Made by a program: the position numbers and the translations under genes | Source of the DNA: a bacterium | GTDB lineage: Bacteria > CG2-30-53-67 | Direction: 5' to 3' | Assembly: GCA_024277725.1 (NCBI GenBank) | Contig: JAJRUP010000097.1 | Span: forward strand, 264-64,263 | DNA: 64,000 bases | Notes under the pieces: generated by a model | Seen by the model: only the letters and a program-made list of their open reading frames with translations | Told to the model about the DNA's origin: nothing | Database searches by the model: none | Part shown: positions 6,370 through 62,256 of the stretch, piece after piece | Layout: each line of letters opens with the position of its first letter | Position numbering within the stretch: the stretch's first letter is position 1

Positions 6370-6991
6370 CGGGCTTCTCCCCGGGGTCGGTGAAATAATA
6401 AAGTTCCATCTTCATCTCCACGGATAACCCGTTGGACGTCTTTTTAAGACGCACCTCCCGGATATCGATCAACCGCTTTCCTTCCCGAAGGGATTTGAGA
6501 AAGTGATAGAGGGTACGATAGGCACACCGGAACTGTATCTTGACCGGAATTCCGTACAGCACATGGGAGTCCGTATCTATCGGGACGGGCAATGCCCCGA
6601 GTGATGAACGAGTAAGGACTTCTTCCATGTTGATCTGCTCCACCGCACCCCTGAAATAAGATATCTCGTCAATTCCCAGGGATCGTCCCACCTCTTTCAG
6701 ATTTTCCAGATAGGTGTAAAACCCATCCCTCTCGGGAAGCATTTTCCGATCCTTAGCATCCCGTGCATCGAGCATACGGATCCGCTCCGGCGACAGGGTC
6801 TCCAACTCCTGTGAAACCTGTTCCATCTCTTTGCCCAGTCTTTTCATTCTTTCCTGCAACGCTCTCCATTCCCGAACCTTGGGGACGATCAGTACCATGA
6901 CCAGGATCAGGATCACCAGACCCGGAAGGGCCATCTGCACCAGGTTCTGGTGTTCATTCATCCATTGTTTCACGCCCGCCCTCTGTGCCAT
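6359..6991 (-). CDS. PilO/GspM-like inner-membrane pilus assembly protein
   Basis: TM helix LPGLVILILVMVLIV, a coiled-coil region, then a conserved C-terminal PilO-like fold. The start is chosen at MAQRAGVKQW, just downstream of the PilM/N stop; the ORF track extends further upstream and overlaps PilM/N. Confidence 0.55.
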   Translation of the reverse strand: MAQRAGVKQWMNEHQNLVQMALPGLVILILVMVLIVPKVREWRALQERMKRLGKEMEQVSQELETLSPERIRMLDARDAKDRKMLPERDGFYTYLENLKEVGRSLGIDEISYFRGAVEQINMEEVLTRSSLGALPVPIDTDSHVLYGIPVKIQFRCAYRTLYHFLKSLREGKRLIDIREVRLKKTSNGLSVEMKMELYYFTDPGEKPDAA

Positions 6992-6995
6992 GGGG

Positions 6996-8591
6996 TTATT
7001 CTCCGACGATTTCAAACCGGATTTTCCGCAGCACGGCAGAAGCGATTCGGACCCGTCCCGATTCCCCCTGATCGGCGCCGGGGCCAAGCCGTCCACGGAC
7101 GTTCCGGAAGAGTCCCGACCTCTTACACCGGTCCAGAAAGTCATCAAGGACGGACTCACCACCGGAATAATCGTGCAACACGATCCAACCCGACAGTTTC
7201 ATGGAAAAAGGGCCTCTCCCCCCCTGCACCACTAACTGATCGAGAACAACCGGGTCCGGCGTGTACAGACTCAGGGCCGCCAGAACATCCTCAGGAGGAA
7301 TCGAAGCAGGTGCCAGCCCCTGACAGATCGCCCGACGCAACAAACGGTCGGCTTGGGCCTGAAACATCCGGCGAACCCCCTGAAATCGGTCATCCACCTT
7401 GGCATAACCCTGTTGTAATCCACGCACCTCCAGTCGATCATGATGTACCTTCCAGGAAAGCTGCACATAGAGAAAAAGCACCAGGACCGCCGCCGCCGCA
7501 TAGGCGATCTTGGCGACCCGCTGGGCGGATCTTTTCCTCCATCGCAACTGCAGATCCAGGGGAAGGAGATTTGCCGTGGAAAAAATCGATGGACTTTTGG
7601 CCACACCCACAGGAAGATCGTATTCGCCCTCCTCCCGAGGTGCCGGTGCACAGGCAGGGGGGCGAGTCATCCCCGGCAATTCATCGAGGACCGTCAACGG
7701 CAGTTTCAGGTGCCGCTTCAGATCCTCCGCCAGATGGGGCACGTTCCCCCCTTCACCGGTCAACCAGATCTGTTCAATGGATTTCTTGTGTTGCTGCTTC
7801 ACATAGAGAAAGGAGCGATTGATTTCGGTGCAGAGACGTTCGAAAGGATCGTCCCCCTCTCCTGCAATCTCTTCGGCAACGGTGGTGATCTCCATGGCCT
7901 CCCCGCCCTCATGGAGGGGAGTAGATACGTCCACAGCGGACGCCCCTTCGAACTGTGAGAAATCAATCTCTTTCTTGATCATCCGGGAAAACAGAAAATG
8001 TTTGCCCTGAGTCACGATAAGATCAACACCGACGCGGGTGACATGGAGACGGGCCACCGTCTCCTCCGTTCCGAGGATCAAATCGGCCGAAGGAGCGATC
8101 GTCTGTACAAAGGGGATGGTCAGGAGATAATGAGGAACCAGCCCGGCACTCTCCATGAGCGAAACGGCATTCTGCACCGCCTCCACGGGTACCGCCGCTG
8201 CGATCACCTCGATTTTCGGGACCCCTTCCTGACGGTAATGGGTATTGATTTTGTAGACAGTCCGGGTATCCTGACGAACACCGAAGGCTTTGCCGGCCTC
8301 AAAGGGGATCACGGCATCGATTTCCTTTTGTGTCATCTTCGGCAGGGCGAAAGCCCGGTGGAGAATACGGGCATCGTGGAGAACCATGCCGGCGGCCATT
8401 CCGGCAAGGCCGTGGTCGCGGACGGATGCGGCCAATGCCTGCCGAACCGCCTCGGGATGATCCGAAGGCGCCTCAACCCGGAAGAGCCCTTCCAGGCAGG
8501 ACTTCTTTCGCGACCGCCGGAGGACGGCCAGGCGAATCGCATTTCCGCTCACCTCGATACCGACAACCGGTGCTGATGAAAAAAGATTCAC
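6996..8591 (-). CDS. PilM-PilN fusion protein (actin-like ATPase PilM N-domain plus PilN-like TM/periplasmic domain)
   Basis: The N-terminus MNLFSSAPVVGIEVSGNAIRLAV is typical of PilM/FtsA-like proteins. Around residue 340 there is a TM segment (VAKIAYAAAAVLVLFLYVQL) followed by a PilN-like C-terminal region. The total of 531 aa is much longer than a solo PilM. Confidence 0.65.
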   Translation of the reverse strand: MNLFSSAPVVGIEVSGNAIRLAVLRRSRKKSCLEGLFRVEAPSDHPEAVRQALAASVRDHGLAGMAAGMVLHDARILHRAFALPKMTQKEIDAVIPFEAGKAFGVRQDTRTVYKINTHYRQEGVPKIEVIAAAVPVEAVQNAVSLMESAGLVPHYLLTIPFVQTIAPSADLILGTEETVARLHVTRVGVDLIVTQGKHFLFSRMIKKEIDFSQFEGASAVDVSTPLHEGGEAMEITTVAEEIAGEGDDPFERLCTEINRSFLYVKQQHKKSIEQIWLTGEGGNVPHLAEDLKRHLKLPLTVLDELPGMTRPPACAPAPREEGEYDLPVGVAKSPSIFSTANLLPLDLQLRWRKRSAQRVAKIAYAAAAVLVLFLYVQLSWKVHHDRLEVRGLQQGYAKVDDRFQGVRRMFQAQADRLLRRAICQGLAPASIPPEDVLAALSLYTPDPVVLDQLVVQGGRGPFSMKLSGWIVLHDYSGGESVLDDFLDRCKRSGLFRNVRGRLGPGADQGESGRVRIASAVLRKIRFEIVGE

Positions 8592-8594
8592 CGT

Positions 8595-9800
8595 TTATCC
8601 TCCGGCCACACTCATCATCTTGTAGAGGGGCAAAAAAACCGACATGGCAACAGTCCCGACGACACCGCCTAAAAGCAGGATGATTAAGGGCTCCATAACC
8701 CCGAAGACCTTCTTGACCGTCATGGGGACCTCCCGGTCGTAGAAACCACTGAGTTTTCCCAGGGTGAAATCGAGACTCCCCGTCTCCTCTCCGATAGAGA
8801 CCATCCGGAGAAAAAGAGGCGGAAAAAGTCCCGTCTCCCGCATCGACACGGCAAGGCCTCGCCCTTCCTGTACCCTCTGCCGAACCTCCACAACGGCCTT
8901 CTCAAAGACCCGGTTGCCCGTGGTCTTTTCCATCAATTCCAAAGCATGGATGATATTGACACCGGAGCGGTAGAGGGAACTGAAGGTATGGGCGAAGCGC
9001 GCCAGGATGATCTTATGATTCAGACTGCCGAAAACGGGGACCATCAGTTTGACCCGGTCGTAGGCAACACGGGTGGCCGGAATCCTCTTGATCAACCGCA
9101 GGGCAAGGATCAACAGAATCAATCCGCCCAGAAGAAAATCCCAGGAATGGACCATGAAACCGCTGATGGCGATGATGATCTTGGTCGGGAGAGGAAGGGC
9201 AACATTACTCTTTTCGAAAATCACGAGAAACTTCGGAAGTACGACGGTAAAGATCAGGGCCACCAGACCGGCGATAGCCCAGAAGACAATGATGGGATAG
9301 AGCGTCGCCTGCTTGATCTGCCCCATCAGTTCCTCCTGCCACTCCAGATAGGTGATCAGGCTCTGGAAGGATTCCTCCATCTTTCCCGTACTCTCTCCGG
9401 CGGAGATCATCGCCACGTACAATTCAGAAAAAACCTGGGGATATTCTCCCATGGCGCTGGAAAGAGAAAGACCGGCCTCGATATTCCGGTGGATGTCTTC
9501 AATGACCTGGCGGAAAAAACCGGTTTCCGTCTGCTCCAGCAGGTCCTGCAGACCGGCAAGAATCGGGACTCCCGAGGAGAGAATCGTACCGAGATGAACG
9601 GTAAAGGTGATCAGGTCTTTCCGGCTGACTTTTTTCTTTGCGATCAGGGAGGCATTCTTCTTTAATTCGAACCCCGTGGGATAACACCCGATACCGGAAA
9701 GCTTCGCATAGAGATCTTCCGGATTCACGGCAGCCATGACTCCATTGATGACCTTTCCCTTTGTATTGCGCGCTTTATATTGGTACTCCGGCATCTTCAA
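8595..9800 (-). CDS. Type II secretion / type IV pilus platform protein (GspF/PilC family)
   Basis: 401 aa with three TM regions and duplicated GspF-domain motifs (e.g. TGKMEESF, ETGSLDFTL). Confidence 0.85.
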   Translation of the reverse strand: MKMPEYQYKARNTKGKVINGVMAAVNPEDLYAKLSGIGCYPTGFELKKNASLIAKKKVSRKDLITFTVHLGTILSSGVPILAGLQDLLEQTETGFFRQVIEDIHRNIEAGLSLSSAMGEYPQVFSELYVAMISAGESTGKMEESFQSLITYLEWQEELMGQIKQATLYPIIVFWAIAGLVALIFTVVLPKFLVIFEKSNVALPLPTKIIIAISGFMVHSWDFLLGGLILLILALRLIKRIPATRVAYDRVKLMVPVFGSLNHKIILARFAHTFSSLYRSGVNIIHALELMEKTTGNRVFEKAVVEVRQRVQEGRGLAVSMRETGLFPPLFLRMVSIGEETGSLDFTLGKLSGFYDREVPMTVKKVFGVMEPLIILLLGGVVGTVAMSVFLPLYKMMSVAGG

Positions 9801-9810
9801 ACCTCACGGA

Positions 9811-11514
9811 TCATGTCAACCGCATAACTTCGTCGATGGTGGTCAATCCCACGACAACCTTCTTGAACCCGTCATTCCGCATCGGCATCATCCCCTGCCC
9901 CATTGCACATTTTTGGATCTCACCGGAGGAAGCCCCCTGCAGGATTAATTCACGAACGGCATCATTGACGGGAAGGAGTTCATAGATGGCGGCCCGCCCC
10001 CGGTAACCGCTCTGGTTGCATTTGTCGCAGCCCGTCCCCCGGTAGAAGGAGAACCCCTCCATTTCTCCCAGACCCAACGCCTGTAGTTCTTCGGCAGGGA
10101 CCGTGTAGGATTCCTTGCAGTCGGGACAGATCTTCCGCACCAGCCGTTGGGCCAGGACCATGATAATGGAAGAGGCCAGAAGATAGGGATCGAGTCCCAT
10201 GTCGATGAGTCGGGGAAGGGCCCCCGCCGCATCATTGGTATGGAGGGTGGAGAAGACAAGATGCCCCGTCAGGGCAGCCCGGATCGCCATTTCCGCCGTC
10301 TCCGAATCCCGCATCTCCCCGACGAGGATCACATCGGGGTCCTGCCGCAGGAGGGAGCGTAAACCGGAGGCAAAGGTCATTCCGATCTCTTCGTTGATCT
10401 GGGTCTGGCGGATCACCGAAAGCTGGTATTCCACGGGATCCTCAAGGGTGGCAATCTTCTTGTCAAGAGAGTTGATATGGGCAAGAGCCGTGTAGAGGGT
10501 CGTCGTCTTGCCCGAACCGGTGGGGCCGGTAACGAGGATGATCCCGTGGGGGCGCTGGATCATCTCCGTAAAGATCTCGAGATTCTGCGGGGAGAAACCG
10601 AGGTCCTCCAACCCCAGGATCACCTTCGACTTGTCGAGAATCCGCATGACGACGTTTTCACCATGGATGGTGGGGAGGGTCGAGACCCGAAGATCAACAT
10701 CCTTCTTCCCGACCTGGAAGCGGATCTTTCCGTCCTGGGGGATGCGCGATTCAGCGATATTCAGATCGGCCAGGATCTTGATCCGCGCGATCACGGAAGG
10801 CTGCAGTTGCTTCGGCAGCAGAAAACCCTGCTGTAGGGCACCGTCGAGACGATAACGAACGCGCAGTACCTTCTCATCCGGTTCAAAATGAACGTCCGTG
10901 GCTCCCTCGTTGACCCCCCGGAGGATCAGCTGATTCACCAATCGAATGATCGGAGCTTCCTGAGCCTCCTGATCGGCACGGTCCTTCCCCAATCCCTCGG
11001 CAAGGGCCTGATCGACGACTTCATCGATGGAGCCGGAAAATCCGTAATATTTGTTGATCGCCTCAAGGACATCCTTTTCCGAGGCGGCAATGACATTGAC
11101 CTCCAGCCCCGACTGGTTCTGGACTTCGTCAACGGCCACAACATCAAAAGTATCGACCATGGCAACAGTCAGGATATCCGACTCCCGGGAGATGGGGATG
11201 AGTTTGTATTTCCGGGCAATCTCCTCGGTGATCAGTTTCACGGCGTCAAGATCGATCTCGACGAATTCCAGGTTTTTCTGGACCGTCCCCGATTCCTGGG
11301 CCAGAGCCGCCTCGATCTGCTCCTGGGTCACGAAGCCGAGGCGGACCAGTATCTGGCCCAACATCTCCCGGGTCCGCTTCTGCTCCTTCAGGGAGATCCG
11401 GAGCTGTTCCGGGGTCAAAAGTCCCGCTTCAATCAACCGTTCGCCTAAAGGACGTGTTTTTGGGGGTGCACTCGCTGTCATCAGAAGAGGGCTTTCTTTC
11501 CAGGCACGGCTCAA
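9811..11514 (-). CDS. Type II secretion / type IV pilus assembly ATPase (GspE/PilB family) with N-terminal GspE_N (MshEN) domain
   Basis: Walker A box GPTGSGKTT, a tetracysteine zinc motif (CPDC...CDKC), and an N-terminal GspE_N helical domain (LGERLIEAGLLTPEQLRISLKEQ). The start may be the internal Met at about 11481. Confidence 0.9.
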   Translation of the reverse strand: MSRAWKESPLLMTASAPPKTRPLGERLIEAGLLTPEQLRISLKEQKRTREMLGQILVRLGFVTQEQIEAALAQESGTVQKNLEFVEIDLDAVKLITEEIARKYKLIPISRESDILTVAMVDTFDVVAVDEVQNQSGLEVNVIAASEKDVLEAINKYYGFSGSIDEVVDQALAEGLGKDRADQEAQEAPIIRLVNQLILRGVNEGATDVHFEPDEKVLRVRYRLDGALQQGFLLPKQLQPSVIARIKILADLNIAESRIPQDGKIRFQVGKKDVDLRVSTLPTIHGENVVMRILDKSKVILGLEDLGFSPQNLEIFTEMIQRPHGIILVTGPTGSGKTTTLYTALAHINSLDKKIATLEDPVEYQLSVIRQTQINEEIGMTFASGLRSLLRQDPDVILVGEMRDSETAEMAIRAALTGHLVFSTLHTNDAAGALPRLIDMGLDPYLLASSIIMVLAQRLVRKICPDCKESYTVPAEELQALGLGEMEGFSFYRGTGCDKCNQSGYRGRAAIYELLPVNDAVRELILQGASSGEIQKCAMGQGMMPMRNDGFKKVVVGLTTIDEVMRLT

Positions 11515-11572
11515 ACGACCGGACGTGGAAATACCGTCGACCGGAGGGGAGAATAATCACCGGTCGACATCA

Positions 11573-12193
11573 TTATTTCACGCGGAAACCGATGTCGTCG
11601 CCCCCCAGCGTCGGACTGTCGGAGATCAGCTGCTTCACATCGGTATTGATCACTCCATCGGGACCGGCGGAAAGAACAAACGTCGCCTGATATCCGCCTG
11701 TGCCATTTTTCCAGAGACCGATCACATTACAGTAGTATTTGTTTCCCCAGGGATCGCTTTTGATCTCGTTGATATAGGGCCCCTTCCATCGGAATTCCCC
11801 GCTCGTCGGATAGGGATTGCCGCCCCCTTCGGGATCGTTCAGGATCAACTGATTCTCAAAGGTGTCCCTTCGGGTCGCGCCCCAGGTCACCCAGCCGCCG
11901 GTATCGGTCCCGCTGTGACCGGGAGTATTTCCGTCGGACGTCTCCAGAACATAGAGATAATTGCTGCTCCCGGAGCTGGGGTCGTCATCGCTGGGCCATT
12001 TCCCCGTATCCTTGTAGAAATCCGCGATGGCCGCCCCCAAGACCTGGACATCGTTCTTGGCCCGGGCGATCTTGGAGTCATCAATGTTCTTGATGATCGA
12101 CGGGGTCATGATCGCCGCCAGGATCGCGATAACAGCAATGACCACGATAATCTCCACCAATGTGAACCCTTCCTGCCTGCCAAACCTTTTCAT
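11573..12193 (-). CDS. Type IV pilin / pseudopilin (prepilin-type N-terminal cleavage and methylation domain)
   Basis: MKRFGRQEG|FTLVEIIVVIAVIAILAAI is a class III signal with Gly at -1 and Glu at +5. An RBS AGGGGAGG precedes the ATG at 12193. The ORF track lists a longer 217-aa form. Confidence 0.8.
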   Translation of the reverse strand: MKRFGRQEGFTLVEIIVVIAVIAILAAIMTPSIIKNIDDSKIARAKNDVQVLGAAIADFYKDTGKWPSDDDPSSGSSNYLYVLETSDGNTPGHSGTDTGGWVTWGATRRDTFENQLILNDPEGGGNPYPTSGEFRWKGPYINEIKSDPWGNKYYCNVIGLWKNGTGGYQATFVLSAGPDGVINTDVKQLISDSPTLGGDDIGFRVK

Positions 12194-12515
12194 AGTGCAC
12201 CTCCCCTGATTTTTTTTCGACGCCACTGTAAACCGGGATCGTGGTCATCTTGCCGCAACAGCCGAAGATCACGGAAGCCTCCGGGCTTCATCCTTTTTTT
12301 GCAGGTTTCCGATAAAAAATCACACAGATATCCATCTTTGTTCGGATGAGTATCGCTCTTATCGGCATTACAACCTCCAAACTTTAGGAAAGCCTTTTCA
12401 AATGAGTAAAAATTTCCCCCAATTCCCCCCAAAAAAAGGTTCACCCCACGATACAAATGGAGTACAATTAGAAAAGTCAAGGAGTGAATATCTCTTCAAC
12501 TTTCAGGAGCGGAAC

Positions 12516-15815: not shown

Positions 15816-18800
15816 ATGAAGCCGCCGGCAGAAGCACATGGAGTTTGTTCTATGCGCTCCCTTTTCTGCCTTGCTCTCTTTCTTCTCTTCGCCGGGGCCA
15901 AGGGAGCGGGGGCAACGACATATTATGCCCATCCGGAGTGTTCGGACAATCCGTCGAGCCCGATTGAACAGGTCGGGACATATGACTGCTCTGCCCATGT
16001 TTGCACTGATGCCGATCCGGCCAGTGATGCCTGCTTTATTCGACGGGCTGCCGCCTTTGCCTCCGCTGACGGAGATGTGGTGGAGTTGGAGGATGGGACC
16101 TATCTTCTCAAGCAACCGGTGATATTTCCGGACCGGACGGCCACGACCTATATTAAGGCAGCGCATGCGGGTGCGGTTACGATCACGTCCGCGGGTGCCC
16201 TCACTAAGTTATTCGACATGGGAGGGGGAAACGGCTCGGATAACTGGCAGATCGAAGGACTCCTCTTTGATGGAAACGGGAAGACCGCCACCGGGATAGA
16301 AGCCTCCAGCGTGAAGGTCAAGATTTACAACAATACCTTCAGAAACTGTGATCACGGGATCAGCGCGGGGGGGGCGCCGGCCGGCAAAGGCAAGGACATT
16401 CAAGGGAATCTCTTCTATCACTGCAGCTATGCCATGGTGTGGAGTGGAGACTGGTATGATACAACGGTCAAGAATAATACAATCGTGGACAATGACCATG
16501 TGCTTTACTTCTCGGGATACTGGATGACGGGAAGCATTTTTACCAATAACCTCATCGCTTGGAACAACGGCACCTCGGGCGAACAAATCCTCTTTACCAA
16601 TCTTCCCGAAACCTTCCTGAACAACAATGTCTACAGCGATCAAACTGCTGCCAGAGCCTATGACTTCATCACCTGGAGGTACGAAGGTTTTCCGGGGAGC
16701 GTAGACGCCTCGAATCTCTCCCTGCCACCGAATTTTGTGGACCGTGCCGGGGGCGACTACAGCCTGGCCCCAGGTTCTCCCCTCATCGACAAAGGCGTAG
16801 CCTCGAGCCTTTCCACCGATCTTGCCGGGAATGGACGAAACCAGGGAAATGGGGTCGACATCGGCTGTTACGAATCTCCGTATACTGGGTGCGTCACCTA
16901 CAGTATTGCCACCATTCCGAACAAGGTAGTTGTGATTGGTAATTCCATTGCCGCCGGATACTCTGCGGTTTCTCCATCTGTCGGTATGGGTACGGATGCC
17001 ACGGATCCAAGTCAGGCCGGAACGCCCGCCAAATCCCTCCATGACCTTCTTGGGCCGTCGTGGACCGTTATTAACTGGGGCGTGCCAGGGCTCCATTCTG
17101 TATCGATGCCTCTTCTGGCCTACCGCGCCCTGGAAGAGGACCCGGAATGGGTGATTGTAGGGCCGGGATGGATCAATACCTTTGGCTGGCCGACCGCGAC
17201 GGTCAACAATATCACACCCGCGTATTTTGCGGAGTGCGCCAAGGAAACCGTGCGGGTTTTGAAGAATGCAGGGGTTGAGTCCAGGAAGATCATTCTTGTC
17301 GGCATGCTTGCCGAGGACTCCCAGCCGGACCAGGCGCCGACCCCCTCCGGTCACTACGCGAGCGTCAATATGAGCGCCGCCGAGATCCGGGACGTACTCG
17401 TGGATGTCGCCGTTGCGGAGGATGTACTGTTTGTGGATGCCTATCATATTTTTGCCGGCACGGAGATTCCGAACTGGAATACGACCTTTTTTAATAATGT
17501 TGACAACGACGTCCATCCCAATGTCCTCCACGGATATCCTCTCTTAGGCCGTCTCTGGTATAACATGATCTCCATGGGAGGAGCCTTTTTCATTCGGGAC
17601 GGTGCACCCCCCACGAACAATGAGATTTCCGTCTATCCCCTCTGCGAGGATGCCCGTTCCTATACGAACTCAGCCAGTAACGGTTGCATACTGACAAGCG
17701 ATAATACCTCGGCGGGAGTCCCATTCACGCCGATTAACAGGGGAGCACAGTTCAACCAAAAGATCCTTGATCTGCCCGGGGTACCGGACACTCCCGTGCG
17801 GGTCAAGGTGGATCCCACCATGCCCACGATGCATCTCTTGACCCTGGAGGAAGACGGAAATAACAGAAACGGAACGGAATTCAATCTGGAGCTGGGATCT
17901 TCCGGGAAGAGGACAGACATTACCATAGGTGCGATGGAGTATGGGGGGATTCATGTCGGGTCCTCCAGCCCTTCTCATGTCTTCACTATCCGGAACGAGG
18001 GCACGGAGGTGCTCGACATGGGGACGGTCTCAATCGCTGGAGGTGATGCCACCCAATTTGTTCTCCAAGGGGATACCTGTACGAGTATCTCTCTTCTTCC
18101 GGCGCAGACGTGCCAGGTCCGGGTTGCTTTCGCTCCCGGTACGGCAGGTACCAAAAGTGCTCGCCTTTCCATCCCGTTTGTTGATGTGGAGACAACCCGA
18201 CTGGACCTCCCGCTTACCGGTACGGGCATCGATCCCGATGATTTCGACGCCGACGGGCACAAGTCTATTTCCGCAGGCGGGGATGACTGTAATGACACCG
18301 ACTCCACCGTGTACGGAGGCGCACTCGAACTCTGCGACGGCCAGGATAATGACTGCGACACGGTAACGCCCCCGGACGAGGTTGACGATGACAGTGACGG
18401 TTATGTGGAGTGTACGCTGGACACCGGCGGATGGGACGGGGCTGTCTCCAAACTCGGGAACGACTGTGACGATAGCGATCCCAGTGTCCATCCGGGCGGT
18501 ACGGAAGGGCCCTTCGGAGACCTCACCTGTTCGGATCTGAAAGACAATGACTGCAACGGAGCTGTAGACAGTCTTGACCGTGCCTGCATGACCACGGGGG
18601 AAGTCATCGGCTATGTCCGCGAAGTGTGCGCGGGCTACACGAACTGCTACAACTCTCTGCAAGCCTGGCAACAAGCCAAGGGTGGTATCGATTTTACGGG
18701 ATGTTCTGTCGGGGATCTGGTCTGTGCCAACAAAATCGCAGTCGCTCAGATAGACGGAGCCTGGACCAATCCCGACACGGCGACGCTCACCATTGATGGA

Positions 18801-20237
18801 TGGACTACGGACGCAACAAGATATGTAAGAATTTATACGACGCCCGCGGCCCGCCACAACGGGATCTGGGGCAACGGTTATCGACTTCAGACAACGGCCA
18901 GAAATACCATTATGTCCAGTCATGTGAAACTGGAGGGACTGGCCATCAGTACCGGGACGAACAATGTGGATACTCTGGCCGTGATCGGTTCCGGCACCAC
19001 GGATGTTGAGATAGGCTATTGCCTGGTCATTAACGGCAATACGAGCACCAACTGGCGTAACGCATTCTATACCTATGACCTGGGCGCGGGCAACTCGGTC
19101 AGACTCTATAACTCTATTTTCATTGTCAACAGCCCTGGTGCTTCTTCGACCGCGATAGAGGCCTATCTGAACGGAACCATCTATGCTTCCAATGTAACCG
19201 GCGTGAACAAGACAACCGGTTCCGGTTATGTTTTCAAAGCGAACAGCGGCGGTGATATTGTGGCCTATAATTGCCTGGGGCAAAAAGGCACGAATGGGGC
19301 GGTCTTCGGATTAGCCGCGGGAACGATGTTTTGCAGCTACTGTGCCTCTACGGATGATACGGCGGACAATTTCGGAGGGACGGGTAACCGGATATCCCAG
19401 GTTTTCTCTTTCATCAATGCCGCGAGTGACAATTATCATCTCGACCCCTCCGATGGCGGAGCGAGAGATCACGGCGGTAACGCCGATCCCAACTTCACCT
19501 TTGTAGACGATATTGATGGATCCACACGGACCGGTGTCTGGGATATCGGTGCAGACGAAATGCTCAACTGTGCGGTAGATGATGCAACCTGTGACGGGGT
19601 GGACGATGATTGCGACGGGGATTTGGATGAGGACTATGTCAGTACTCCCACCTTCTGTGGTACGGGTGCCTGCGCGTCCTCCGGACAGCTTGAATGCCAG
19701 AGCGGGATGGTGGCCGACACCTGCACGCCGGGCGTGCCGGCGGCTGATGATGTGACCTGCGATGGTATCGATGACGACTGCGACGGCTTGGTTGATGAAG
19801 ACTATGTGGTAAATGCCGCCTGTGGTGTGGGCGCCTGCCGGACCAACAACACACCGAGCACGTGTGCGGGTGGCGTAGAGACCCTCTGTCAGCCGGGAGT
19901 TCCTCTTTCTCCGGACGATGCCACCTGCAACGGCATTGATGATGACTGCGACGGTCTCACCGATGAAGACTGTGATACCGATGGTGATGGACTCCCGGAT
20001 ATGGTGGATCCTTTGCCGCTCTACTTTAACTACCGCGACGGGGACGTTGATGCCTCCGGCGCCGTTGATATCGCGGATGCCCTGATTGCCATGCGGATCA
20101 CTTCAGGTCTGGAGCCACCGTCCACTCTCCAGTTGCAGCACGGCGATGTGACCCCCGCCGGCGCTCCGGATGGAGCAATCGATATCTCAGACGCCCTGGT
20201 GATCATGCGAAAGGCCATGGGTCTGGTTTCATTCTGA
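15816..20237 (+). CDS. Giant secreted multidomain protein: parallel beta-helix domains, SGNH/GDSL esterase domain, ASH/choice-of-anchor-D-like domain, MopE-type Cys-rich repeats, C-terminal dockerin-like module
   Basis: Signal peptide (MRSLFCLALFLLFAGAKGAGA; alternative start 15852). Beta-helix repeats (NNTFRNCDHGISAGG..., NNTIVDN...). The SGNH block is VVVIGNSIAAGY ... DNDVHPN. MopE-like repeats CDGxDDDCDGxxDEDY occur four times. The C-terminus has duplicated Ca-binding dockerin segments DVDASGAVDIADALIAMRI / DGAIDISDALVIMRKAMGL. Confidence 0.75.
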   Translation: MKPPAEAHGVCSMRSLFCLALFLLFAGAKGAGATTYYAHPECSDNPSSPIEQVGTYDCSAHVCTDADPASDACFIRRAAAFASADGDVVELEDGTYLLKQPVIFPDRTATTYIKAAHAGAVTITSAGALTKLFDMGGGNGSDNWQIEGLLFDGNGKTATGIEASSVKVKIYNNTFRNCDHGISAGGAPAGKGKDIQGNLFYHCSYAMVWSGDWYDTTVKNNTIVDNDHVLYFSGYWMTGSIFTNNLIAWNNGTSGEQILFTNLPETFLNNNVYSDQTAARAYDFITWRYEGFPGSVDASNLSLPPNFVDRAGGDYSLAPGSPLIDKGVASSLSTDLAGNGRNQGNGVDIGCYESPYTGCVTYSIATIPNKVVVIGNSIAAGYSAVSPSVGMGTDATDPSQAGTPAKSLHDLLGPSWTVINWGVPGLHSVSMPLLAYRALEEDPEWVIVGPGWINTFGWPTATVNNITPAYFAECAKETVRVLKNAGVESRKIILVGMLAEDSQPDQAPTPSGHYASVNMSAAEIRDVLVDVAVAEDVLFVDAYHIFAGTEIPNWNTTFFNNVDNDVHPNVLHGYPLLGRLWYNMISMGGAFFIRDGAPPTNNEISVYPLCEDARSYTNSASNGCILTSDNTSAGVPFTPINRGAQFNQKILDLPGVPDTPVRVKVDPTMPTMHLLTLEEDGNNRNGTEFNLELGSSGKRTDITIGAMEYGGIHVGSSSPSHVFTIRNEGTEVLDMGTVSIAGGDATQFVLQGDTCTSISLLPAQTCQVRVAFAPGTAGTKSARLSIPFVDVETTRLDLPLTGTGIDPDDFDADGHKSISAGGDDCNDTDSTVYGGALELCDGQDNDCDTVTPPDEVDDDSDGYVECTLDTGGWDGAVSKLGNDCDDSDPSVHPGGTEGPFGDLTCSDLKDNDCNGAVDSLDRACMTTGEVIGYVREVCAGYTNCYNSLQAWQQAKGGIDFTGCSVGDLVCANKIAVAQIDGAWTNPDTATLTIDGWTTDATRYVRIYTTPAARHNGIWGNGYRLQTTARNTIMSSHVKLEGLAISTGTNNVDTLAVIGSGTTDVEIGYCLVINGNTSTNWRNAFYTYDLGAGNSVRLYNSIFIVNSPGASSTAIEAYLNGTIYASNVTGVNKTTGSGYVFKANSGGDIVAYNCLGQKGTNGAVFGLAAGTMFCSYCASTDDTADNFGGTGNRISQVFSFINAASDNYHLDPSDGGARDHGGNADPNFTFVDDIDGSTRTGVWDIGADEMLNCAVDDATCDGVDDDCDGDLDEDYVSTPTFCGTGACASSGQLECQSGMVADTCTPGVPAADDVTCDGIDDDCDGLVDEDYVVNAACGVGACRTNNTPSTCAGGVETLCQPGVPLSPDDATCNGIDDDCDGLTDEDCDTDGDGLPDMVDPLPLYFNYRDGDVDASGAVDIADALIAMRITSGLEPPSTLQLQHGDVTPAGAPDGAIDISDALVIMRKAMGLVSF

Positions 20238-56185: not shown

Positions 56186-57556
56186 TCAAGGATTGACCGT
56201 AGGTGGCGCAAGCCACGGTGTTGCAGGAGCCATAGCATCCCCTGAGCCTCCGCCTGCCCCCGGCACTTTAAGGATAAAAACGTCGTGTCTGTTGCCGGTT
56301 TGGTGCTCCCAATCACTAGTGAACATCACGAACTTCCCATCAAAGCTCACGTTTCCCTGTGGGTATTCCCAATAGTTATCGGCATTGCTACGGTGGTGTG
56401 CCAGGCGTTGAACGTGCGTGGTATTTTTGTCTGTCCATACTTTCATAATTTCTCCTTGCCACGGACCATTCACTACTTGGCCTCCAATCAGAAAAGTAGT
56501 GACAATGATAGAAGATTAATCTGTGGGAAAAGCACTTGTATATCCTTCCTGTGCTGATCCTCCACCAGTTGGAGGAAGCATCATATAGTACCAATTTGTG
56601 TCAGCGTTGCTGGTTAAATCCCTTGCAATGACATGCCGAGTATCTCCGTTATATGCGTCAACTTGGTATAATTTCCCATCTCCTATAGCCCTGTGACCTA
56701 CCCCCCTGTCAGTAGCGTCATAATCTATTCTCGTTATCGTATTTGTAGCGAACTTCCATAGATACCAAGGCGAACCCGCACCCTGGGCCGCAAGAACGTA
56801 TTTCCCAGACTTATCAATCATTATGGCATGAAGAGAGCTGAACCCTTGCGCGGCGAAGTCGTGCGTCCACGTTTTGTCTGTAGAACGTTGATAGACCTTA
56901 GCTACAGTAGTATTGCCGGCAGGGCCATCAAGAAAGGCAAAATAGTCGTTGTCGGCGCTCATGGTCATGTAGTCCATCCAGGAGCCGAACGCCTTTATCA
57001 GTGTCCATGTATTATTGCTTGGGCTATAAGGAGCGCTTAGGTCAAGATCGACTTGATATAAGTTGGTTGAATTACTGCCATACCCAAACCCATAAATTCT
57101 GTTGGGATGATCAGACCCTCTATGCCATTGCATCGTATCATCTTGTAAGCCTGTCCCTCCGCCCCACATGGAAGTTTGTGCGGCATTCAAACGTTGAATA
57201 GCAAGAGTAGTAGGGTTAAATGTATACAGCGATACGGCAGCCGGAGAAGATGAATTGTATTTTATCCAGAACGCTGTCGAATTCCAGTTGAAAGCAGGCC
57301 AAAAAGACGCATATAAATGACAGTTGTCATTTCCATCATTCTGGTCTGTGACTCTTAAGATTGTCGTACCGAATGTGGGATCGGTAAAGGTTTTTCCCGC
57401 AGCCGGTAACGTTGGCAAGGACGGTGGAGGGCAGACCTTCGTGCTGTTCAGTGCCGCACATCCAGGATCCAGGGCAATGGCGGGCCCCGGCTCGCCAAGG
57501 AAGAAAGAAAAGACGAATAAGGAACTCATCAATAATCTGCTTGCGATCTTTCTCAT
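56186..57556 (-). CDS. Secreted beta-propeller protein (oligogalacturonide-lyase-like family), interrupted by an in-frame TAA at 56516-56518
   Basis: Signal peptide MRKIASRLLMSSLFVFSFFLG, with a GGAGG RBS before this Met. ORFs 56516-57589 and 56186-56473 are in the same frame, separated by a single TAA. The downstream segment continues the propeller-like sequence (NADNYWEYPQGNVSFDGKFVMFTSDWEH). Confidence 0.55.
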
Positions 57557-57656
57557 TATCAAATACCTCCAAAACTTGATGCTATGCATTAATTTCCAGA
57601 TAGCCTTCTCAAGAAGTGAGTCGGTATTAGCTTCTGGCTATTCATCCTGATCCCAA

Positions 57657-57869: not shown

Positions 57870-59531
57870 TTAAGACGAAATCAATCCCACTGCGTTTCGC
57901 ATGATTGCTAAGACATCTCCCGTATCAATGATACCATCCGGCGCAGGGGCTCCGCCTACCAACGGCGCAACATCTCCATGGACAAACTGCTGTACGGAAG
58001 GCGAATAAGTTCCGATAACAATGCGCAGGGCCAGAAGTGCATCCGCTATGTCCACGGTGCCGTCCAGGTTGATGTCTCCATCAGGAAGATCGCTTCCCCC
58101 TTCGTTTCCCTGCCGATCCACCGAAGAGATGGTGTAGTATCCGGGCTGGGAGGTGTCGGCCAGCCAGTCCAGGTAGGTGGTGGTTCCCACCGGTACCGAG
58201 GCGATCCGGTATCTCCGATCCACCGGCGGGGCGCCGGTCGCCGAATAGTAGATGTTGTAATACCGGATTTTGGAGTTGTTCGGCTCCGACCAGGACAGGC
58301 GGTACGGCCCTCCGGCGGAGATGGTAAAGCTGGAGGGGGTCGGCGCCGGCGGTGGGGTGGTCCAGAATCCCGTTTTTCCCTCTGGAGCATATTGCGAATC
58401 CGTAAGATTGCCGTTCCCATCCAGGGTCACCCGCCGGACCTCGGATAGCCTACGGCTTTCCAGGCGGCTGTACTCTTCCGAGGTGACGGCGTAATACACG
58501 GTCGTATTGTTGGTTTGGGGGGTGTCGTAGGACTCGGTGGCCACAGCATCGGCCGTTAGCTCCGTCCACCCCGTCTCCCCGTCCGGGCTCGCCCAGACAT
58601 GGTATCCCTTGATCTCCTCGGCCCCAGGGGGCGGGTCCGTGGCCTCATCGGGCCAGCCCCGCGTGGTGTAGGAGGGGCGCTCCCACGTGAGGTGCACCAG
58701 GGATCCGTTTTTGGAAACCCTCACGTTTACAGAGGGATGGGGATAGTAGACAACGGCCCAGCAGATATAGGGGAAACGGTCGCCGTTGTTGTTCAACCAG
58801 ACCGCCTGGAACGCCACCTTGGTGCCGTCCGGCGACTGACTGGGCCTCGGATAGCTGTTGTAGTTTCCGGCGTAGCCCGGGTAGTGCATATCCGCGATCT
58901 GGAAGGCATTCTTGTAGGAATCCGTATACTTGTTCGCCATGAGGAAGAGGGTATAGGGATTTACGCCGATCACGTAGTCGGTCCATCCGGTCCAGGAGTG
59001 GTGCTGGCCGTCATACTTGTTATACGCCAGCACATAATTGGGCTCCAAGGCGTTGGTTTTCATGTTGTAGATCCTGGTCCCGGGCTTGGGATTGTCGGTG
59101 TAGGTTCCTACCAGGGCGTACTTGCCCCAGCGGTCGAACACGGGATGGCCGAAGTAAGGGGTGCCGTAGGGATTGGCCGTGGGCCGCTGTGTAGAGAAGA
59201 AGCCCACTCGGGATCCGTCGTAAGACCAGACGTTGGTGCCATGTTCCTTGGAGTAGATCTCCTCCTGGTCCGGTGCATGAACCAGGACCCACACCTCGTG
59301 TCCCGTGGTCAGATCCTGGTAAGCCAGGGTCTCGGGCTGCCAGATATAGTGGTTTGACGGGTCCTCGAGCTGGGTGGTGGGCCACCCGTTTGTCCCGTAG
59401 CAGGTTTTTCTCGCGACTGCTTCCTCGAGGTTCTCGTTTGCCGCAAGGGCCTGGATCGTCGTGAGGAGAAGGATGACTGAAACGAGAGTAAACAGTTTTG
59501 CTGCCTGCGAAGAAATATCGGTGATTTTCAT
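57870..59531 (-). CDS. Secreted beta-propeller (oligogalacturonide-lyase-like) + FN3-like protein with C-terminal dockerin-like module
   Basis: Signal peptide MKITDISSQAAKLFTLVSVILLLTTIQALA (Met 96 of the track ORF). TolB-like PDG repeats (SQSPDGTKVAF, ASPDGETGW). The C-terminus DGDINLDGTVDIADALLALRI ... PDGIIDTGDVLAIMRNAVGL is dockerin-like. Confidence 0.7.
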   Translation of the reverse strand: MKITDISSQAAKLFTLVSVILLLTTIQALAANENLEEAVARKTCYGTNGWPTTQLEDPSNHYIWQPETLAYQDLTTGHEVWVLVHAPDQEEIYSKEHGTNVWSYDGSRVGFFSTQRPTANPYGTPYFGHPVFDRWGKYALVGTYTDNPKPGTRIYNMKTNALEPNYVLAYNKYDGQHHSWTGWTDYVIGVNPYTLFLMANKYTDSYKNAFQIADMHYPGYAGNYNSYPRPSQSPDGTKVAFQAVWLNNNGDRFPYICWAVVYYPHPSVNVRVSKNGSLVHLTWERPSYTTRGWPDEATDPPPGAEEIKGYHVWASPDGETGWTELTADAVATESYDTPQTNNTTVYYAVTSEEYSRLESRRLSEVRRVTLDGNGNLTDSQYAPEGKTGFWTTPPPAPTPSSFTISAGGPYRLSWSEPNNSKIRYYNIYYSATGAPPVDRRYRIASVPVGTTTYLDWLADTSQPGYYTISSVDRQGNEGGSDLPDGDINLDGTVDIADALLALRIVIGTYSPSVQQFVHGDVAPLVGGAPAPDGIIDTGDVLAIMRNAVGLISS

Positions 59532-59710
59532 GGTCTTTCTTCCTGCTTGGCTGCCGTGTCCTAATGGTGACCGGGGCAGCGTGACGTCTGGCTTCCTTCC
59601 CAACAGTCTTTCCTGACCCCGGAGCCCCCGGGGTGCTGAAATCGGCCCATAACAGGTGGAGAGACCGGGTTGTTCCTCTCCGGAGCGAGGCCGCTTGCTT
59701 TTTTCGGGTC

Positions 59711-62044
59711 CTACACCCTCCCCGAAGGTCTTTTCCTCCGGCAGGCCGTGAAGACCGGAGGCAGCAGGACCCACCAGAGATCCAAGGGGTTGCCCGGCCG
59801 GCGTGACAGCGCGCATCCCCCGCCTCCTCCGCCCCCGGAGGAACCCGGGTCTCCGCCGCCGTTCACCGTGTCCGACACCGAGGCGGCCTGGGGAATCCCC
59901 ACGTAGCCGGGGTCCGAGATCAGGCCGTTGGTCATGCCGTCATCGTCCCCGGTCCCGCCGTCGGCGAGGGCAAAAGATATTTGATTGCCGCTCACCTGGG
60001 AGGTGAGTTTCCGAAACCCGTTGTTGTCGTCGTACTTCCAGTACTCGGCATCGTCAGGCAGAACGTCCGGCATCACAATGGTTACCAATACGATTTCGCC
60101 GACCGAAATGCCTGCAATCTGATATTCAACTCCGCCGTAGGGAAAACTCACATTCGGCTGACTTCCGCTTGAAACAACGGTCTCAATAAATTCGGTTTGA
60201 GCCAGTCTCGCCGTCGGATGGTTGATGACCACGGACATCTTCCCCTGCGGAGTCGCCATGGTTGCCGCTTGGTTATCCACCCGATCGAGAGTTCCATCCT
60301 GATCGGAATCTACGCCATCTTCATCAAGATCGGAAACTCCGTCATCGTCTGAGTCCGTATCCAATGCATCGACAACACCGTCCGCATCGGTATCTGCCGG
60401 GGTGTCGGAGGAGCCCCACTCCGCCAAGTCAGAGGCATCATCATGATCGCTATCCGACAAATTCGGGTTGAGTCCGTAGGTCGTCTCATCAATATTCAAA
60501 ATTCCATCCATGTCCTGATCGCCGGTGGGGCCGTCTGCATCATCCATGTCGATATAGTTGAGTGCTCCGTCCTTGTCTGCGTCATTGGTCCCCTCGGCAA
60601 CATCCGGTTTCCCGTCGTTGTCGGAATCGAGATCAAGGGCGTCAATCGTTCCGTCGGCATCGGTATCGATCGGAGCATCCCCGGCCCCCCATTCGACAAA
60701 GTCGGAGATTCCGTCGCCGTCGGAATCGGTGACCCCCGGATTCAGTCCGTAAGCAAATTCTTGCCCATTCGTCAGTCCATCTTCATCCGAATCCATTTCC
60801 GGATCATAAACGGTAATTGTTTTTTCAACGGTCGTTTCTCCCCCATCATTATCGGTCACACGGAGAGAGACTGTGAAACGGCCCGACGTGGCAAAGATAT
60901 GCGAAGGGTTAGCAGTATATGAAGAAGACTGGTCGCCGAAGTCCCAGACATATCGGGTGACCGTCCCGTCACTGTCGCTTGCGTTCGCCGTGAAATTTAT
61001 CGTCAAAGGCATTAATCCGCTCGTTGTATCGGCTGAGATTGAGGCAGTCGGCAACACATTGGGCCGATCCGTCACGACAATCGAGACAGAGGCAATATCC
61101 GTCGCTCCCTGGTCATCGGTGACCGTCAACGTCGCCGTATAGGTGCCGGACGCTGTATAGGTATGTGTCGGAGCTGCACCGGATCCGCTGTCCCCATCGC
61201 CGAAGCTCCAGGCATAGGAATCAATCGTCCCATCCGTATCGATCCCCAGACCGTAGAACCGGACGGAGAGTGGAGCCTCCCCCTGCGTGGGCGTGGCGCT
61301 TGCCGAGGCGGTCGGCGGAGCATTGCCCGGAGACGCCGCCTGCTCCACAACGACCCGGACCGTATCCGTACTGCTCGCCTGCCCGTCGCTCACGGTCAAC
61401 TGGAAAACCAGGGTCTGGCCGGAGAGGGCGGAGGTGAGCGAAAAAAACGGTGTGGCCGTAGTACTCCCCAAGAGATTCACCGTCCCGCCGGAGATCTCTA
61501 CCCACGAATATGTCAGGCTGTCCCCGTCCGGATCGGAACTCCCGCTCCCGTCGAGGTTGATCTGGATACTCCCTCCCGACAGTTGCGATTGTGCAACCGT
61601 CTGGTCCGAACCGGCCGAGGCCGTGGGGGCATGGTTGACCGCTGCCGTTTCCGTGACCGTCACCTCATTGGAATAACCGCTCTCGTTTCCGCTTGTGTCA
61701 TAGGAGGTAACCGCAAGATGGTAGGTAACATCTGCCGTCAGGCCGGAGAGGACGAATTCCGGATTCGCCGGGTCGGAAAGGGATGTCACCGTGACCGAGA
61801 TCGGGGAATCCCCCTCTGTAAGGCCCGTGCCGTTGTAGGGAGCGCCCGCACCGTCCGTATCATAATAGAGCCTGTACCCGGCAAGATCGGTACAGACGCT
61901 TCCATCCGAGTTGGTCGTCGTTTGATCCCAGAAAACCGTTACGGAGGCCTCGGCAAACCCTGCACTGATGAATAATACCATGAAACAAAGGATCAAAGTA
62001 ATCAAATATTGACTTCGGATTGTCCTCATTTGAAAAGCTTTCAT
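59711..62044 (-). CDS. Secreted FN3 / PKD-domain / thrombospondin-type-3 Ca-binding-repeat protein with C-terminal Gly-run/Cys - TM - RRKR tail (putative sorting signal)
   Basis: Signal peptide; PKD motifs (WSFGDGDSGSGAAPTHTYTASGTYTATLTVTDDQGA, WDFGDQSSSYTANPSHIFATSGRFTVSLRVTDNDG). About 12 DxDxDG TSP3-like repeats. C-terminal GGGGGGGCALSRRPGNPLDLWWVLLPPVFTACRRKRPSGRV. Confidence 0.75.
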   Translation of the reverse strand: MKAFQMRTIRSQYLITLILCFMVLFISAGFAEASVTVFWDQTTTNSDGSVCTDLAGYRLYYDTDGAGAPYNGTGLTEGDSPISVTVTSLSDPANPEFVLSGLTADVTYHLAVTSYDTSGNESGYSNEVTVTETAAVNHAPTASAGSDQTVAQSQLSGGSIQINLDGSGSSDPDGDSLTYSWVEISGGTVNLLGSTTATPFFSLTSALSGQTLVFQLTVSDGQASSTDTVRVVVEQAASPGNAPPTASASATPTQGEAPLSVRFYGLGIDTDGTIDSYAWSFGDGDSGSGAAPTHTYTASGTYTATLTVTDDQGATDIASVSIVVTDRPNVLPTASISADTTSGLMPLTINFTANASDSDGTVTRYVWDFGDQSSSYTANPSHIFATSGRFTVSLRVTDNDGGETTVEKTITVYDPEMDSDEDGLTNGQEFAYGLNPGVTDSDGDGISDFVEWGAGDAPIDTDADGTIDALDLDSDNDGKPDVAEGTNDADKDGALNYIDMDDADGPTGDQDMDGILNIDETTYGLNPNLSDSDHDDASDLAEWGSSDTPADTDADGVVDALDTDSDDDGVSDLDEDGVDSDQDGTLDRVDNQAATMATPQGKMSVVINHPTARLAQTEFIETVVSSGSQPNVSFPYGGVEYQIAGISVGEIVLVTIVMPDVLPDDAEYWKYDDNNGFRKLTSQVSGNQISFALADGGTGDDDGMTNGLISDPGYVGIPQAASVSDTVNGGGDPGSSGGGGGGGCALSRRPGNPLDLWWVLLPPVFTACRRKRPSGRV

Positions 62045-62057
62045 AAGTCTACCTCAC

Positions 62058-62093
62058 TACAAAAAAAGGCCGCCAGAAAAAATCCTCTGGCGG
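62058..62093 (-). terminator. Intrinsic-terminator-like hairpin plus U7 immediately upstream of the RBS of the PKD/TSP3 gene (putative riboswitch expression platform)
   Basis: Minus-strand RNA GGCCGCCAGAGGAUUUUUUCUGGCGGCC followed by UUUUUUU, then GUAGUGAGGUAGACUUAUG (RBS and start). Confidence 0.6.
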
Positions 62094-62139
62094 CCCGGCT
62101 GACATAGATGCAGTCATCAGATCACGGGAATCAGGTTAC

Positions 62140-62256
62140 AGGGAAAGTCCAATCATTCAACCGATCCTGTTGCCTGTTTCCCAACGACTGGTTGCTGCCT
62201 CTTTAGTCCCGAAGCTCTGCGCCCCCCGGTTTCCCGAGGTTTGCTCTGAGCAAAGG
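62140..62256 (-). promoter_or_regulatory. Candidate c-di-GMP-I (GEMM) riboswitch aptamer in the 5' leader of the PKD/TSP3 gene
   Basis: Minus-strand RNA: ..CUCAGAGCAAACC-UCGGGAAACCGGGG-GGCGCAGAGCU-UCGGGACUAAAGAGGCAGC... Compare the Vc2 aptamer ..CACAGGGCAAACC-[P1 hairpin with GAAA loop]-GGACGCAAAGCC-UCCGGCCUAAACC.. The GCAAACC box, a GNRA (GAAA) capped P1, a GGCGCAGAGC box and a CUAAAG receptor-like element are all present. Confidence 0.45.

Follow-up and report, generated by a model that had tools for sequence, protein, structure and literature searches.

How does a bacterium whose exopolysaccharide (EPS) locus encodes an exosortase keep its other secreted proteins at the cell envelope? This question is raised by a 64,000-nucleotide stretch of DNA (the window; GenBank assembly GCA_024277725.1, contig JAJRUP010000097.1, positions 264 to 64,263; lineage CG2-30-53-67), in which two genes encode secreted proteins of 553 and 1473 residues that end in related tails with calcium-binding-type loops. 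We find that these tails belong to a large, under-annotated dockerin subfamily that is mostly missed by the standard Pfam model. They are predicted to adopt the dockerin fold as remote members of the dockerin superfamily, and we consider it fairly probable that they are divergent docking modules of this fold, retaining their proteins on a membrane-anchored receptor. Localization would then be the most likely function of the tail.

One tail ends the product of the minus-strand gene at 57870..59531 (553 aa, ...DGDINLDGTVDIADALLALRIVIGTYSPSVQQFVHGDVAPLVGGAPAPDGIIDTGDVLAIMRNAVGLISS), and the other ends the product of the plus-strand gene at 15816..20237 (1473 aa, ...DGDVDASGAVDIADALIAMRITSGLEPPSTLQLQHGDVTPAGAPDGAIDISDALVIMRKAMGLVSF). 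Both sequences had been quoted in an initial annotation of this DNA, and our translations agree with them letter for letter; its claim that the two proteins are secreted also stands, as each has a signal peptide. In the 553-aa protein, the dockerin-like tail comprises residues 481-553 plus the stop codon (57870..58091, minus strand; tail hidden Markov model (HMM), E = 8e-36), and in the 1473-aa protein, residues 1405-1473 plus the stop codon (20028..20237, plus strand; E = 3e-31). The two tails are homologous, with 57% identity across 69 residues (BLASTP, E = 7e-23). When the tail HMM was run on the six-frame translation, exactly two sites were found in the window, and a regular-expression scan agreed. 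The remaining DxDxDG matches, in a 777-aa neighboring protein and at 19974 in the 1473-aa protein just upstream of its tail, are TSP3-type repeats and not the tail module.

Each tail had been described as a duplicated calcium-binding segment matching DxDxDGxxDxxD. The internal duplication is real, yet asymmetric, because the full 12-residue loop is present only in the first segment of each tail. These first F-hand loops (DINLDGTVDIAD and DVDASGAVDIAD; 58041-58082 on the minus strand in the 553-aa protein and 20043-20078 on the plus strand in the 1473-aa protein) have ligands at positions 1, 3, 5, 9, and 12, and a helix follows the loop in the structural model. The second loop is split in both tails into D-V-[AT]-P, a Pro/Gly-rich insert of 7 or 3 residues, and P-D-G-x-I-D-x-x-D. 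Specifically, it reads DVAP-LVGGAPA-PDGIIDTGD, with a 7-residue insert, in the 553-aa protein (DVAPLVGGAPAPDGIIDTGD; 57915-57974, minus strand) and DVTP-AGA-PDGAIDISD, with a short 3-residue insert, in the 1473-aa protein (DVTPAGAPDGAIDISD; 20145-20192, plus strand). A canonical second F-hand loop, that is, the near-perfect internal duplication expected for a type I dockerin, is absent in both. Judging from their loop residues, the tails would bind Ca2+.

The dockerin assignment itself had been proposed from the loop pattern, with recognition by Pfam Dockerin_1 (PF00404; gathering threshold, 22.9 bits) as the suggested check. That check came out divided. As isolated sequences, the tail of the 1473-aa protein scored 22.9 bits, exactly at the threshold, and that of the 553-aa protein scored 18.7 bits, below it; with whole proteins, the 1473-aa protein reached 13.7 bits (E = 0.073) and the 553-aa protein gave no match. 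A single tail compared with PDB sequences yielded weak matches only, to dockerins and centrins. A profile built from 10 tail sequences (A2) returned 18 PDB matches, 17 of which were dockerin chains, although the E values were no lower than 0.0015 and reached 4.

Structure prediction gave a clearer picture. The AlphaFold model of the tail (mean predicted local distance difference test score (pLDDT), 92.9; predicted template modeling score, 0.82) places helices at residues 18-29, 36-42, and 60-70, corresponding to the three-helix dockerin fold, and shows a small beta-hairpin at the loop-2 insert. In a Foldseek search of the PDB with this model, 36 of the 40 matches were dockerins, and these were the first 36, so that a dockerin match outranked any EF-hand protein. 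The root-mean-square deviation was 1.4 Å to 2ccl_B (template modeling (TM) score, 0.74/0.89) and 1.0 Å to 1ohz_B, the best TM score against these two type I dockerins being up to 0.74/0.91. The proposal of dockerin-type tails is thus borne out by the isolated-tail Pfam scores, the profile matches, and the predicted fold. Alternatively, the likeness could be due to chance or to generic EF-hand similarity, the tails being unrelated low-complexity ends; the sub-threshold Pfam scores of the whole proteins and the centrins among the weak single-sequence matches would fit this. We regard such an explanation as highly improbable, since it is already contradicted by the E value of 7e-23 between the tails, by the 1757 subfamily members found at E<=1e-10, and by the dockerin-specific fold match.

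Like type I dockerins (C. thermocellum Xyn10B, 1ohz_B, 2ccl_B), the window tails are about 70 residues long, lie at the C-terminus of a secreted modular protein, and combine two F-hand segments and three helices with a perfect first loop, D-x-[DN]-x-[DS]-G-x-V-D-x-x-D. In contrast to type I dockerins, their second calcium loop is split by the 3- or 7-residue Pro/Gly-rich insert, their subfamily has a conserved terminal Trp or Phe, their host is a Gram-negative-type bacterium with an exosortase, and neither glycoside hydrolase cargo nor a scaffoldin is seen in the window. They also resemble the NCBIfam family NF041540 ('GC-type dockerin domain-anchored protein') and the 'choice-of-anchor' families in that a dockerin-type C-terminal domain serves as an anchor; proteins of the window carry choice-of-anchor D, Q, and U domains, and such names denote domains that occur with alternative C-terminal anchors. 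Membership in NF041540 was ruled out, as one tail scored 14.9 bits against a cut-off of 29 bits and the other gave no match.

Searching 1.84 billion representative proteins exhaustively with a profile placed the tails in a wide context: 6532 representatives matched at E<=1e-3, and 1757 still did so at E<=1e-10. In this subfamily, the first calcium loop is canonical, and the second follows the pattern D-[VIL]-[ATSN]-P, insert, P-[DN]-G-x-I-D-x-x-D. The insert has 7 residues in 116 of 153 tails and 3 residues in 9 of them, and two canonical loops were found in only one of the 153. The module lies within 3 residues of the C-terminus in 143 of 156 tails, and 137 of these 143 end in an aromatic residue (Trp, 106; Phe, 27; Tyr, 4). 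The 1473-aa protein follows this rule with a final Phe. Conserved residues (L/I-R-K positions) line the helix faces of the tail. Pfam, at E<=1e-3, recognizes only 9 of 47 full-length members. Narrower searches returned little: a tail-alignment scan of species-representative genomes found only seven canonical rumen dockerins, a word-index search with the tail found only 10 fragments, and a metagenome scan gave six loci, of which one (L013) was useful.

The host proteins, many of them unrelated extracytoplasmic proteins of Gram-negative-type bacteria, range from 79 to 5987 aa and contain Ig-like, TIG, Fn3, FG-GAP, PKD, Lcl_C, and other extracellular domains. The initial annotation had regarded the module as a device of polysaccharide-active enzymes. 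Such specificity is not supported, as the tail elsewhere ends adhesin-like giants, cytochrome c peroxidase-like proteins, and FG-GAP proteins. One member, WP_198134517.1 of Geotalea uraniireducens Rf4, takes its NCBI name from Fn3 and IPT/TIG domains, not from a dockerin. In some proteins, the module is internal or repeated, with 2-12 copies, and a few of these (P0132, 928 aa; P0222, 546 aa; P0273, 693 aa) are built mostly from 6-12 dockerin-like modules in tandem.

Outside cellulosomes, dockerin and cohesin modules occur in all domains of life; they were catalogued in 2009 (Peer et al. 2009, cited in PMC5244752, PMC9012536, and PMC10066038), and these papers describe their role there as unknown. 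Proteins with these modules have been proposed as adhesins in consortia that anaerobic methanotrophic (ANME) archaea form with sulfate-reducing bacteria (PMC10553843), and papers on ANME archaea, sulfate reducers, and Omnitrophota list dockerin-like modules only as possible adhesins. Like those modules, which are proposed to function in adhesion or matrix organization, the tails described here occur on a variety of extracellular proteins in organisms other than cellulose degraders. However, the earlier reports relied on standard domain annotation, whereas the window-tail subfamily mostly escapes PF00404, and in other loci this subfamily is coupled to single lipoproteins instead of annotated cohesin proteins. 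What is new relative to known dockerins is therefore the systematic split of the second loop, the terminal aromatic residue, the poor Pfam coverage, and the lipoprotein neighbor in other genomes. In our literature search, we found no paper linking dockerins with PEP-CTERM systems and none characterizing natural dockerins in Gram-negative bacteria.

The lipoprotein neighbor emerged from eight comparison loci that carry the same tail on long contigs (L013 and L019-L025). Among them, L019 is Geotalea uraniireducens Rf4 (CP000698, 880030-906158) and is syntenic with L021 and L024, leaving six independent loci. Together, the eight loci hold 14 tail-bearing genes, and a single lipoprotein family is present in all eight, with 12 genes in total. 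Every one of the 12 members has a lipobox-bearing signal peptide, usually followed by a Gly-rich linker, and all share a C-terminal domain of ~130 residues; the family comprises a short form of 163-175 aa and a longer one of 381-505 aa that is extended by a further region at its N-terminus. The lipoprotein gene directly adjoins a tail gene in ten cases, with a gap of 38-308 nt, and lies 2.7 kb away in L022. Tail identity and partner-domain identity are correlated across the loci (Pearson r = 0.81 over 55 comparisons), although shared phylogeny confounds this figure. In L020, three consecutive tail-gene/lipoprotein pairs occur, in which tails of 96% identity adjoin partners of 96% identity and tails of ~65% identity adjoin partners of ~49% identity. 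No member of the family was found in loci that lack this tail subfamily (L001-L009 and L014-L018). Adjacency in all eight loci thus lends indirect support, by analogy, to the idea of a protein partner in the window host as well.

A further arrangement is seen in P0131, which has two split-loop tails with a weakly cohesin-like segment between them and is a possible adaptor. Its loci (L010-L012) contain no separate lipoprotein, and an internal segment of P0131 itself matches the lipoprotein-domain HMM (E = 0.003). The genomic context, an RHS-toxin locus, was uninformative, and a word-index search with the cohesin-like segment found nothing.

Taken together, these observations suggest the following mechanism. 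In each tail, a canonical Ca2+-binding F-hand with its helix would be connected through a short linker helix to a second F-hand containing the Pro/Gly-rich split loop. The tail-bearing protein would be exported via Sec and then docked by its tail on a membrane-anchored receptor, so that it would be kept at the cell envelope or in the EPS layer. By analogy with the comparison loci, the receptor would probably be a lipoprotein of the adjacent-gene family, in this case presumably encoded elsewhere in the genome, outside the window. The cargo here would be a beta-helix/SGNH-hydrolase protein and an internally deleted member of a propeller/Fn3 family. Physical docking, the identity of the receptor, and retention at the surface or in the matrix are what we infer from that analogy. 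The arrangement in those loci looks like 1:1 pairs of tail and lipoprotein, not like a scaffoldin, and the module looks like a general-purpose anchor.

Several observations weigh against this reading. None of the 33 window proteins scanned with Pfam matches Cohesin (PF00963), in agreement with the initial annotation, which had named no cohesin partner in the window. Neither is the lipoprotein family itself represented there (HMM with --max, best E = 3). No plausible lipobox open reading frame (ORF) was found in the window, the single regular-expression match being antisense inside the 777-aa gene. The lipoprotein domain is at best weakly cohesin-like in sequence. Cohesin is the only Pfam family matched by more than one member of it (3 of 10, best E = 9e-4, all sub-threshold; the 173-aa Geotalea lipoprotein gave a sub-threshold E = 0.0034), a domain profile found no cohesin in the PDB, and hhalign gave a probability of 0.04 against CipA cohesin 2, a query sequence checked at 304 bits against 2ccl_A and 1ohz_A. 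The correlation of tail identity with partner-domain identity suffers from the phylogenetic confounding noted above. As lipoproteins of bacteria are often oriented toward the periplasm, a role as surface anchor cannot be taken for granted. In the 553-aa protein, the tail has no terminal aromatic residue, and the gene, with its deletion, may encode a non-functional derivative or reflect an artifact of assembly, as discussed below.

The absence of a partner gene from the window would suit a different explanation, in which the tail has no protein partner at all and is a Ca2+-dependent stabilizing module, or one that binds polysaccharide or lipopolysaccharide and holds the protein in anionic EPS. 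The calcium-binding loops, the EPS locus, and the TSP3-type calcium repeats in which the adjoining 777-aa protein is rich are in its favor. However, this reading hardly accounts for the tight, recurrent placement of tail genes next to genes of one lipoprotein family in other genomes, or for tails and partners diverging in parallel, and the conserved L/I-R-K residues on the helix faces are placed as on cohesin-binding surfaces. We therefore consider a partner-free tail unlikely.

Classical cellulosome-like assembly, with a multi-cohesin scaffoldin encoded elsewhere in the genome gathering dockerin-tailed polysaccharide enzymes on the matrix, appears to us slightly less probable still. Non-cellulosomal scaffoldin-like proteins do exist in ANME archaea (PMC9012536), the tail has the predicted dockerin fold, and the beta-helix and SGNH domains of one cargo suit polysaccharide modification. 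On the other hand, the window offers no cohesin and only two tails, one of them on a deleted gene. Furthermore, the candidate partners in related loci are single-domain lipoproteins paired 1:1 with tail genes, the asymmetric second loop speaks against the symmetry for dual binding that typifies type I dockerins of cellulosomes, and the cargo elsewhere consists mostly of adhesin-like or redox proteins. No glycoside hydrolase family and no other cargo of the plant-cell-wall-degrading kind was found in the tail-bearing window proteins, whose domains are beta-helix, SGNH-like, Fn3, and an uncharacterized propeller remnant.

What, then, would a membrane-anchored receptor retain in this organism? 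The 1473-aa protein is a secreted multidomain protein by Pfam and NCBIfam, with a right-handed beta-helix at the Pfam threshold, choice-of-anchor D and Q domains, and MopE-type Cys-rich repeats. Its SGNH/GDSL-like domain scored 30 bits against a threshold of 32.9 bits, with the GNS and DxxH catalytic motifs visible, and a second beta-helix-like region, read from the sequence and not from a domain match, is possible. A PDB sequence search with this protein returned nothing. From its domains, it is plausible that the protein is an enzyme modifying the EPS. No riboswitch was found upstream of its gene.

The 553-aa protein is more problematic. Its ORF spans 57870-59816 on the minus strand, and we prefer the ATG at 59531 as the most plausible start because the protein then begins with a signal peptide and its gene stays clear of the upstream one, which ends at 59711. 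The product, identical to NCBI protein P0001, consists of a signal peptide, what is left of a larger beta-rich domain, a pair of Fn3 domains, and the tail. It belongs to a family of ~730-aa uncharacterized proteins for which there is no Pfam model besides occasional PD40 matches. Compared with all ~120 homologues (alignment A4), it lacks ~234-250 residues from the middle of the N-terminal beta-rich domain. With the full-length homologue P0002 as query, tblastn aligned residues 5-122 to 59510-59172 and residues 357-712 to 59174-58095, which marks a clean in-frame junction at ~59173 (59172..59174, minus strand) with no counterpart for residues 123-356. The missing segment was found nowhere else in the window by tblastn. 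The gene is probably a deletion derivative.

The initial annotation had called this protein a lyase-like propeller. That description is not supported, given the in-frame loss of ~234 residues relative to all homologues and the failure to find a lyase or other enzyme relative by PDB sequence search or by Foldseek against the PDB. The PDB sequence search with the propeller family gave Fn3 hints only. AlphaFold modeled residues 1-480 of the whole protein confidently (pLDDT, 87), and Fn3 tandems dominated the Foldseek matches of the full 553-aa model. The downstream neighbor (56516..57589, minus strand; 357 aa), which has a signal peptide and no family match, was considered as the missing propeller part and as a receptor and was rejected, as it resembles neither the propeller family nor the lipoprotein family.

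The C-termini of the propeller family bear on how the tail is used. Most members end after the second Fn3 domain, four end in canonical dockerins, four in a type IX secretion system (T9SS)-like C-terminal domain, and one in a Gly-rich/Cys tail with a transmembrane helix; within the family, only the window protein has the split-loop tail. The C-terminus therefore behaves as an exchangeable anchor slot. The tails share this slot with PEP-CTERM/exosortase signals and T9SS C-terminal domains. However, they have no PEP motif, transmembrane helix, or basic cluster, being predicted to form a folded, helical, calcium-binding domain and not a cleaved signal, and neither tail-bearing protein matches PF07589 or TIGR02595 (PEP-CTERM).

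Such exchangeability could also mean that the tail acts as a C-terminal signal for sorting or secretion and not as a static anchor, with the lipoprotein as a pilot or chaperone to an outer-membrane export route, e.g., a machine like the type II secretion system (T2SS). The extreme C-terminal position and the final aromatic residue conserved in 137 of 143 tails agree with this idea, as do the swaps with T9SS C-terminal domains and transmembrane anchors, the 1:1 pairing of tail and lipoprotein genes with no multi-cohesin scaffold, and the presence of a T2SS-like operon and an exosortase in the same locus. Yet the predicted fold is one that mediates docking between proteins, cellulosomal dockerins are C-terminal too, a module that is internal or present in 2-12 copies fits a terminal signal poorly, and we know of no secretion system that reads a dockerin fold. 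A sorting signal is thus a rather doubtful alternative, though one that deserves more credence than a partner-free tail. Under docking on a receptor, the concrete candidate is the small lipoprotein encoded beside the tail gene, as in the cultured Geotalea uraniireducens. If true, such pairing would explain the cell attachment of many giant surface proteins and secreted enzymes in bacteria of this kind and would offer new orthogonal docking pairs for surface display. For the two window proteins, we suggest the annotation "dockerin-like C-terminal domain."

The gene of the 553-aa protein appears to be under riboswitch control. Upstream of it lies the minus-strand gene of the 777-aa protein (59711..62044), which has an Fn3-like domain, three PKD domains, TSP3-type calcium repeats, and a choice-of-anchor U domain. 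An aptamer of the c-di-GMP-I (GEMM-I) class, named for cyclic di-GMP, lies at 62086..62255 on the minus strand (Rfam RF01051, 50.9 bits against a gathering score of 35, E = 5e-7, full model 1-87) and ends 42 nt before the 777-aa gene start. It holds an unusual 87-nt insert in one hairpin loop. An intrinsic terminator (62067..62096, minus strand; 13-bp stem with 8 GC pairs, followed by a T run) overlaps with its 5' arm the 3' strand of the aptamer's closing helix and is therefore the likely expression platform. By its sequence, the aptamer-terminator layout is that predicted for a ligand-induced ON switch. Between the 777-aa and 553-aa genes, no terminator-like site was found on the minus strand, and the two are likely co-transcribed.

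At the position that we take to be equivalent to G20 of Vibrio Vc2, on our own mapping of Vc2 onto the Rfam consensus, the aptamer has an A (GAGCAAACC). The G20A substitution is typical of the GEMM-Ib riboswitches of Geobacter, which sense cyclic GMP-AMP (cGAMP), and it can give dual specificity (PMC6140456). The ligand is possibly cGAMP, and the riboswitch would link the operon to cyclic-dinucleotide control of surface-associated life. No riboswitch was found in the loci L008, L013, and L019. The ~1.7 kb upstream of the aptamer (62256-64000) have a low GC content (0.46), and neither strand contains an ORF exceeding 99 aa; at gathering thresholds, this region yielded no tRNA and no further Rfam family.

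More broadly, and only tentatively, the split-loop tail and its neighboring lipoprotein may constitute a widespread, previously undescribed 1:1 tethering or sorting system of Gram-negative-type bacteria, Geotalea among them, that attaches very different extracytoplasmic proteins to the outer membrane. The window proteins would then be clients with a receptor encoded elsewhere, one client operon being switched on by a cyclic-dinucleotide (possibly cGAMP) riboswitch.

The surroundings of the tail genes fit an EPS/exosortase locus, in which a large dockerin subfamily mostly invisible to Pfam marks two proteins. The Pfam scan of the window proteins confirmed that the tail genes flank this cluster, as the initial annotation had stated. 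The exosortase EpsH (13570-14496; PF09721, E = 6e-68) and EpsI (14460-15131; PF11984, E = 1.5e-57), both on the plus strand, are encoded directly upstream of the 1473-aa gene, and an epimerase is also present. The polysaccharide cluster further encodes glycosyltransferases, a Wzy-like polymerase, a sulfatase, a radical SAM enzyme, three asparagine synthase paralogues, and a heparinase II/III-like protein. At the other end of the window, TPR proteins are encoded together with a 198-aa protein with a PEP-CTERM match (2252-2848), which was considered as a cohesin-like receptor and found no support. They are followed by a minus-strand operon resembling those of the T2SS and type IV pilus (4278..12226), with secretin, T2SSB-like, PilO-like, PilM, GspF, a GspE-type ATPase with MshEN, and pseudopilin genes. 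MshEN is a domain that binds cyclic di-GMP; its presence in this ATPase (9811-11514, minus strand; E = 5e-16) would be a second cyclic-dinucleotide link in the locus.

A close relative (L008 and L009; JGI 3300009408 and 3300023503) shares the TPR gene, secretin, GspEF, epimerase, EpsH, and EpsI in synteny, and the epimerases of the two fall in the same cluster at >=90% identity. Synteny stops right after EpsI (15131 onward), where the relative, though otherwise syntenic, lacks the 1473-aa gene and has FemAB-like acetyltransferases in its place. Therefore, the tail genes sit in a variable part of the locus.

The 777-aa protein ends in a putative sorting signal of its own, GGGGGGGC followed by a hydrophobic stretch and RRKR. 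In the minus-strand reading of 59711-59840, this end comprises SSGGGGGGGC, a Pro-containing hydrophobic stretch, and RRKRPSGRV, and none of the CTERM models of NCBIfam or Pfam matches it. A similar GGGC and transmembrane tail is found in P0005, a homologue of the propeller family.

Within the polysaccharide cluster, the three asparagine synthase (glutamine-hydrolysing) paralogues lie within 12 kb on the plus strand (42047-43954, 47157-49037, and 52224-54116; Asn_synthase, E = 1e-100 to 1e-116). This redundancy is unusual and may point to amidation of sugar or uronic acid residues. The cluster also contains a complete ISL3-family transposase gene (45582-46841, minus strand). The GC content of the 34-50 kb segment is 0.42-0.48, compared with 0.52-0.57 elsewhere, and suggests that this segment was horizontally acquired or is mosaic.

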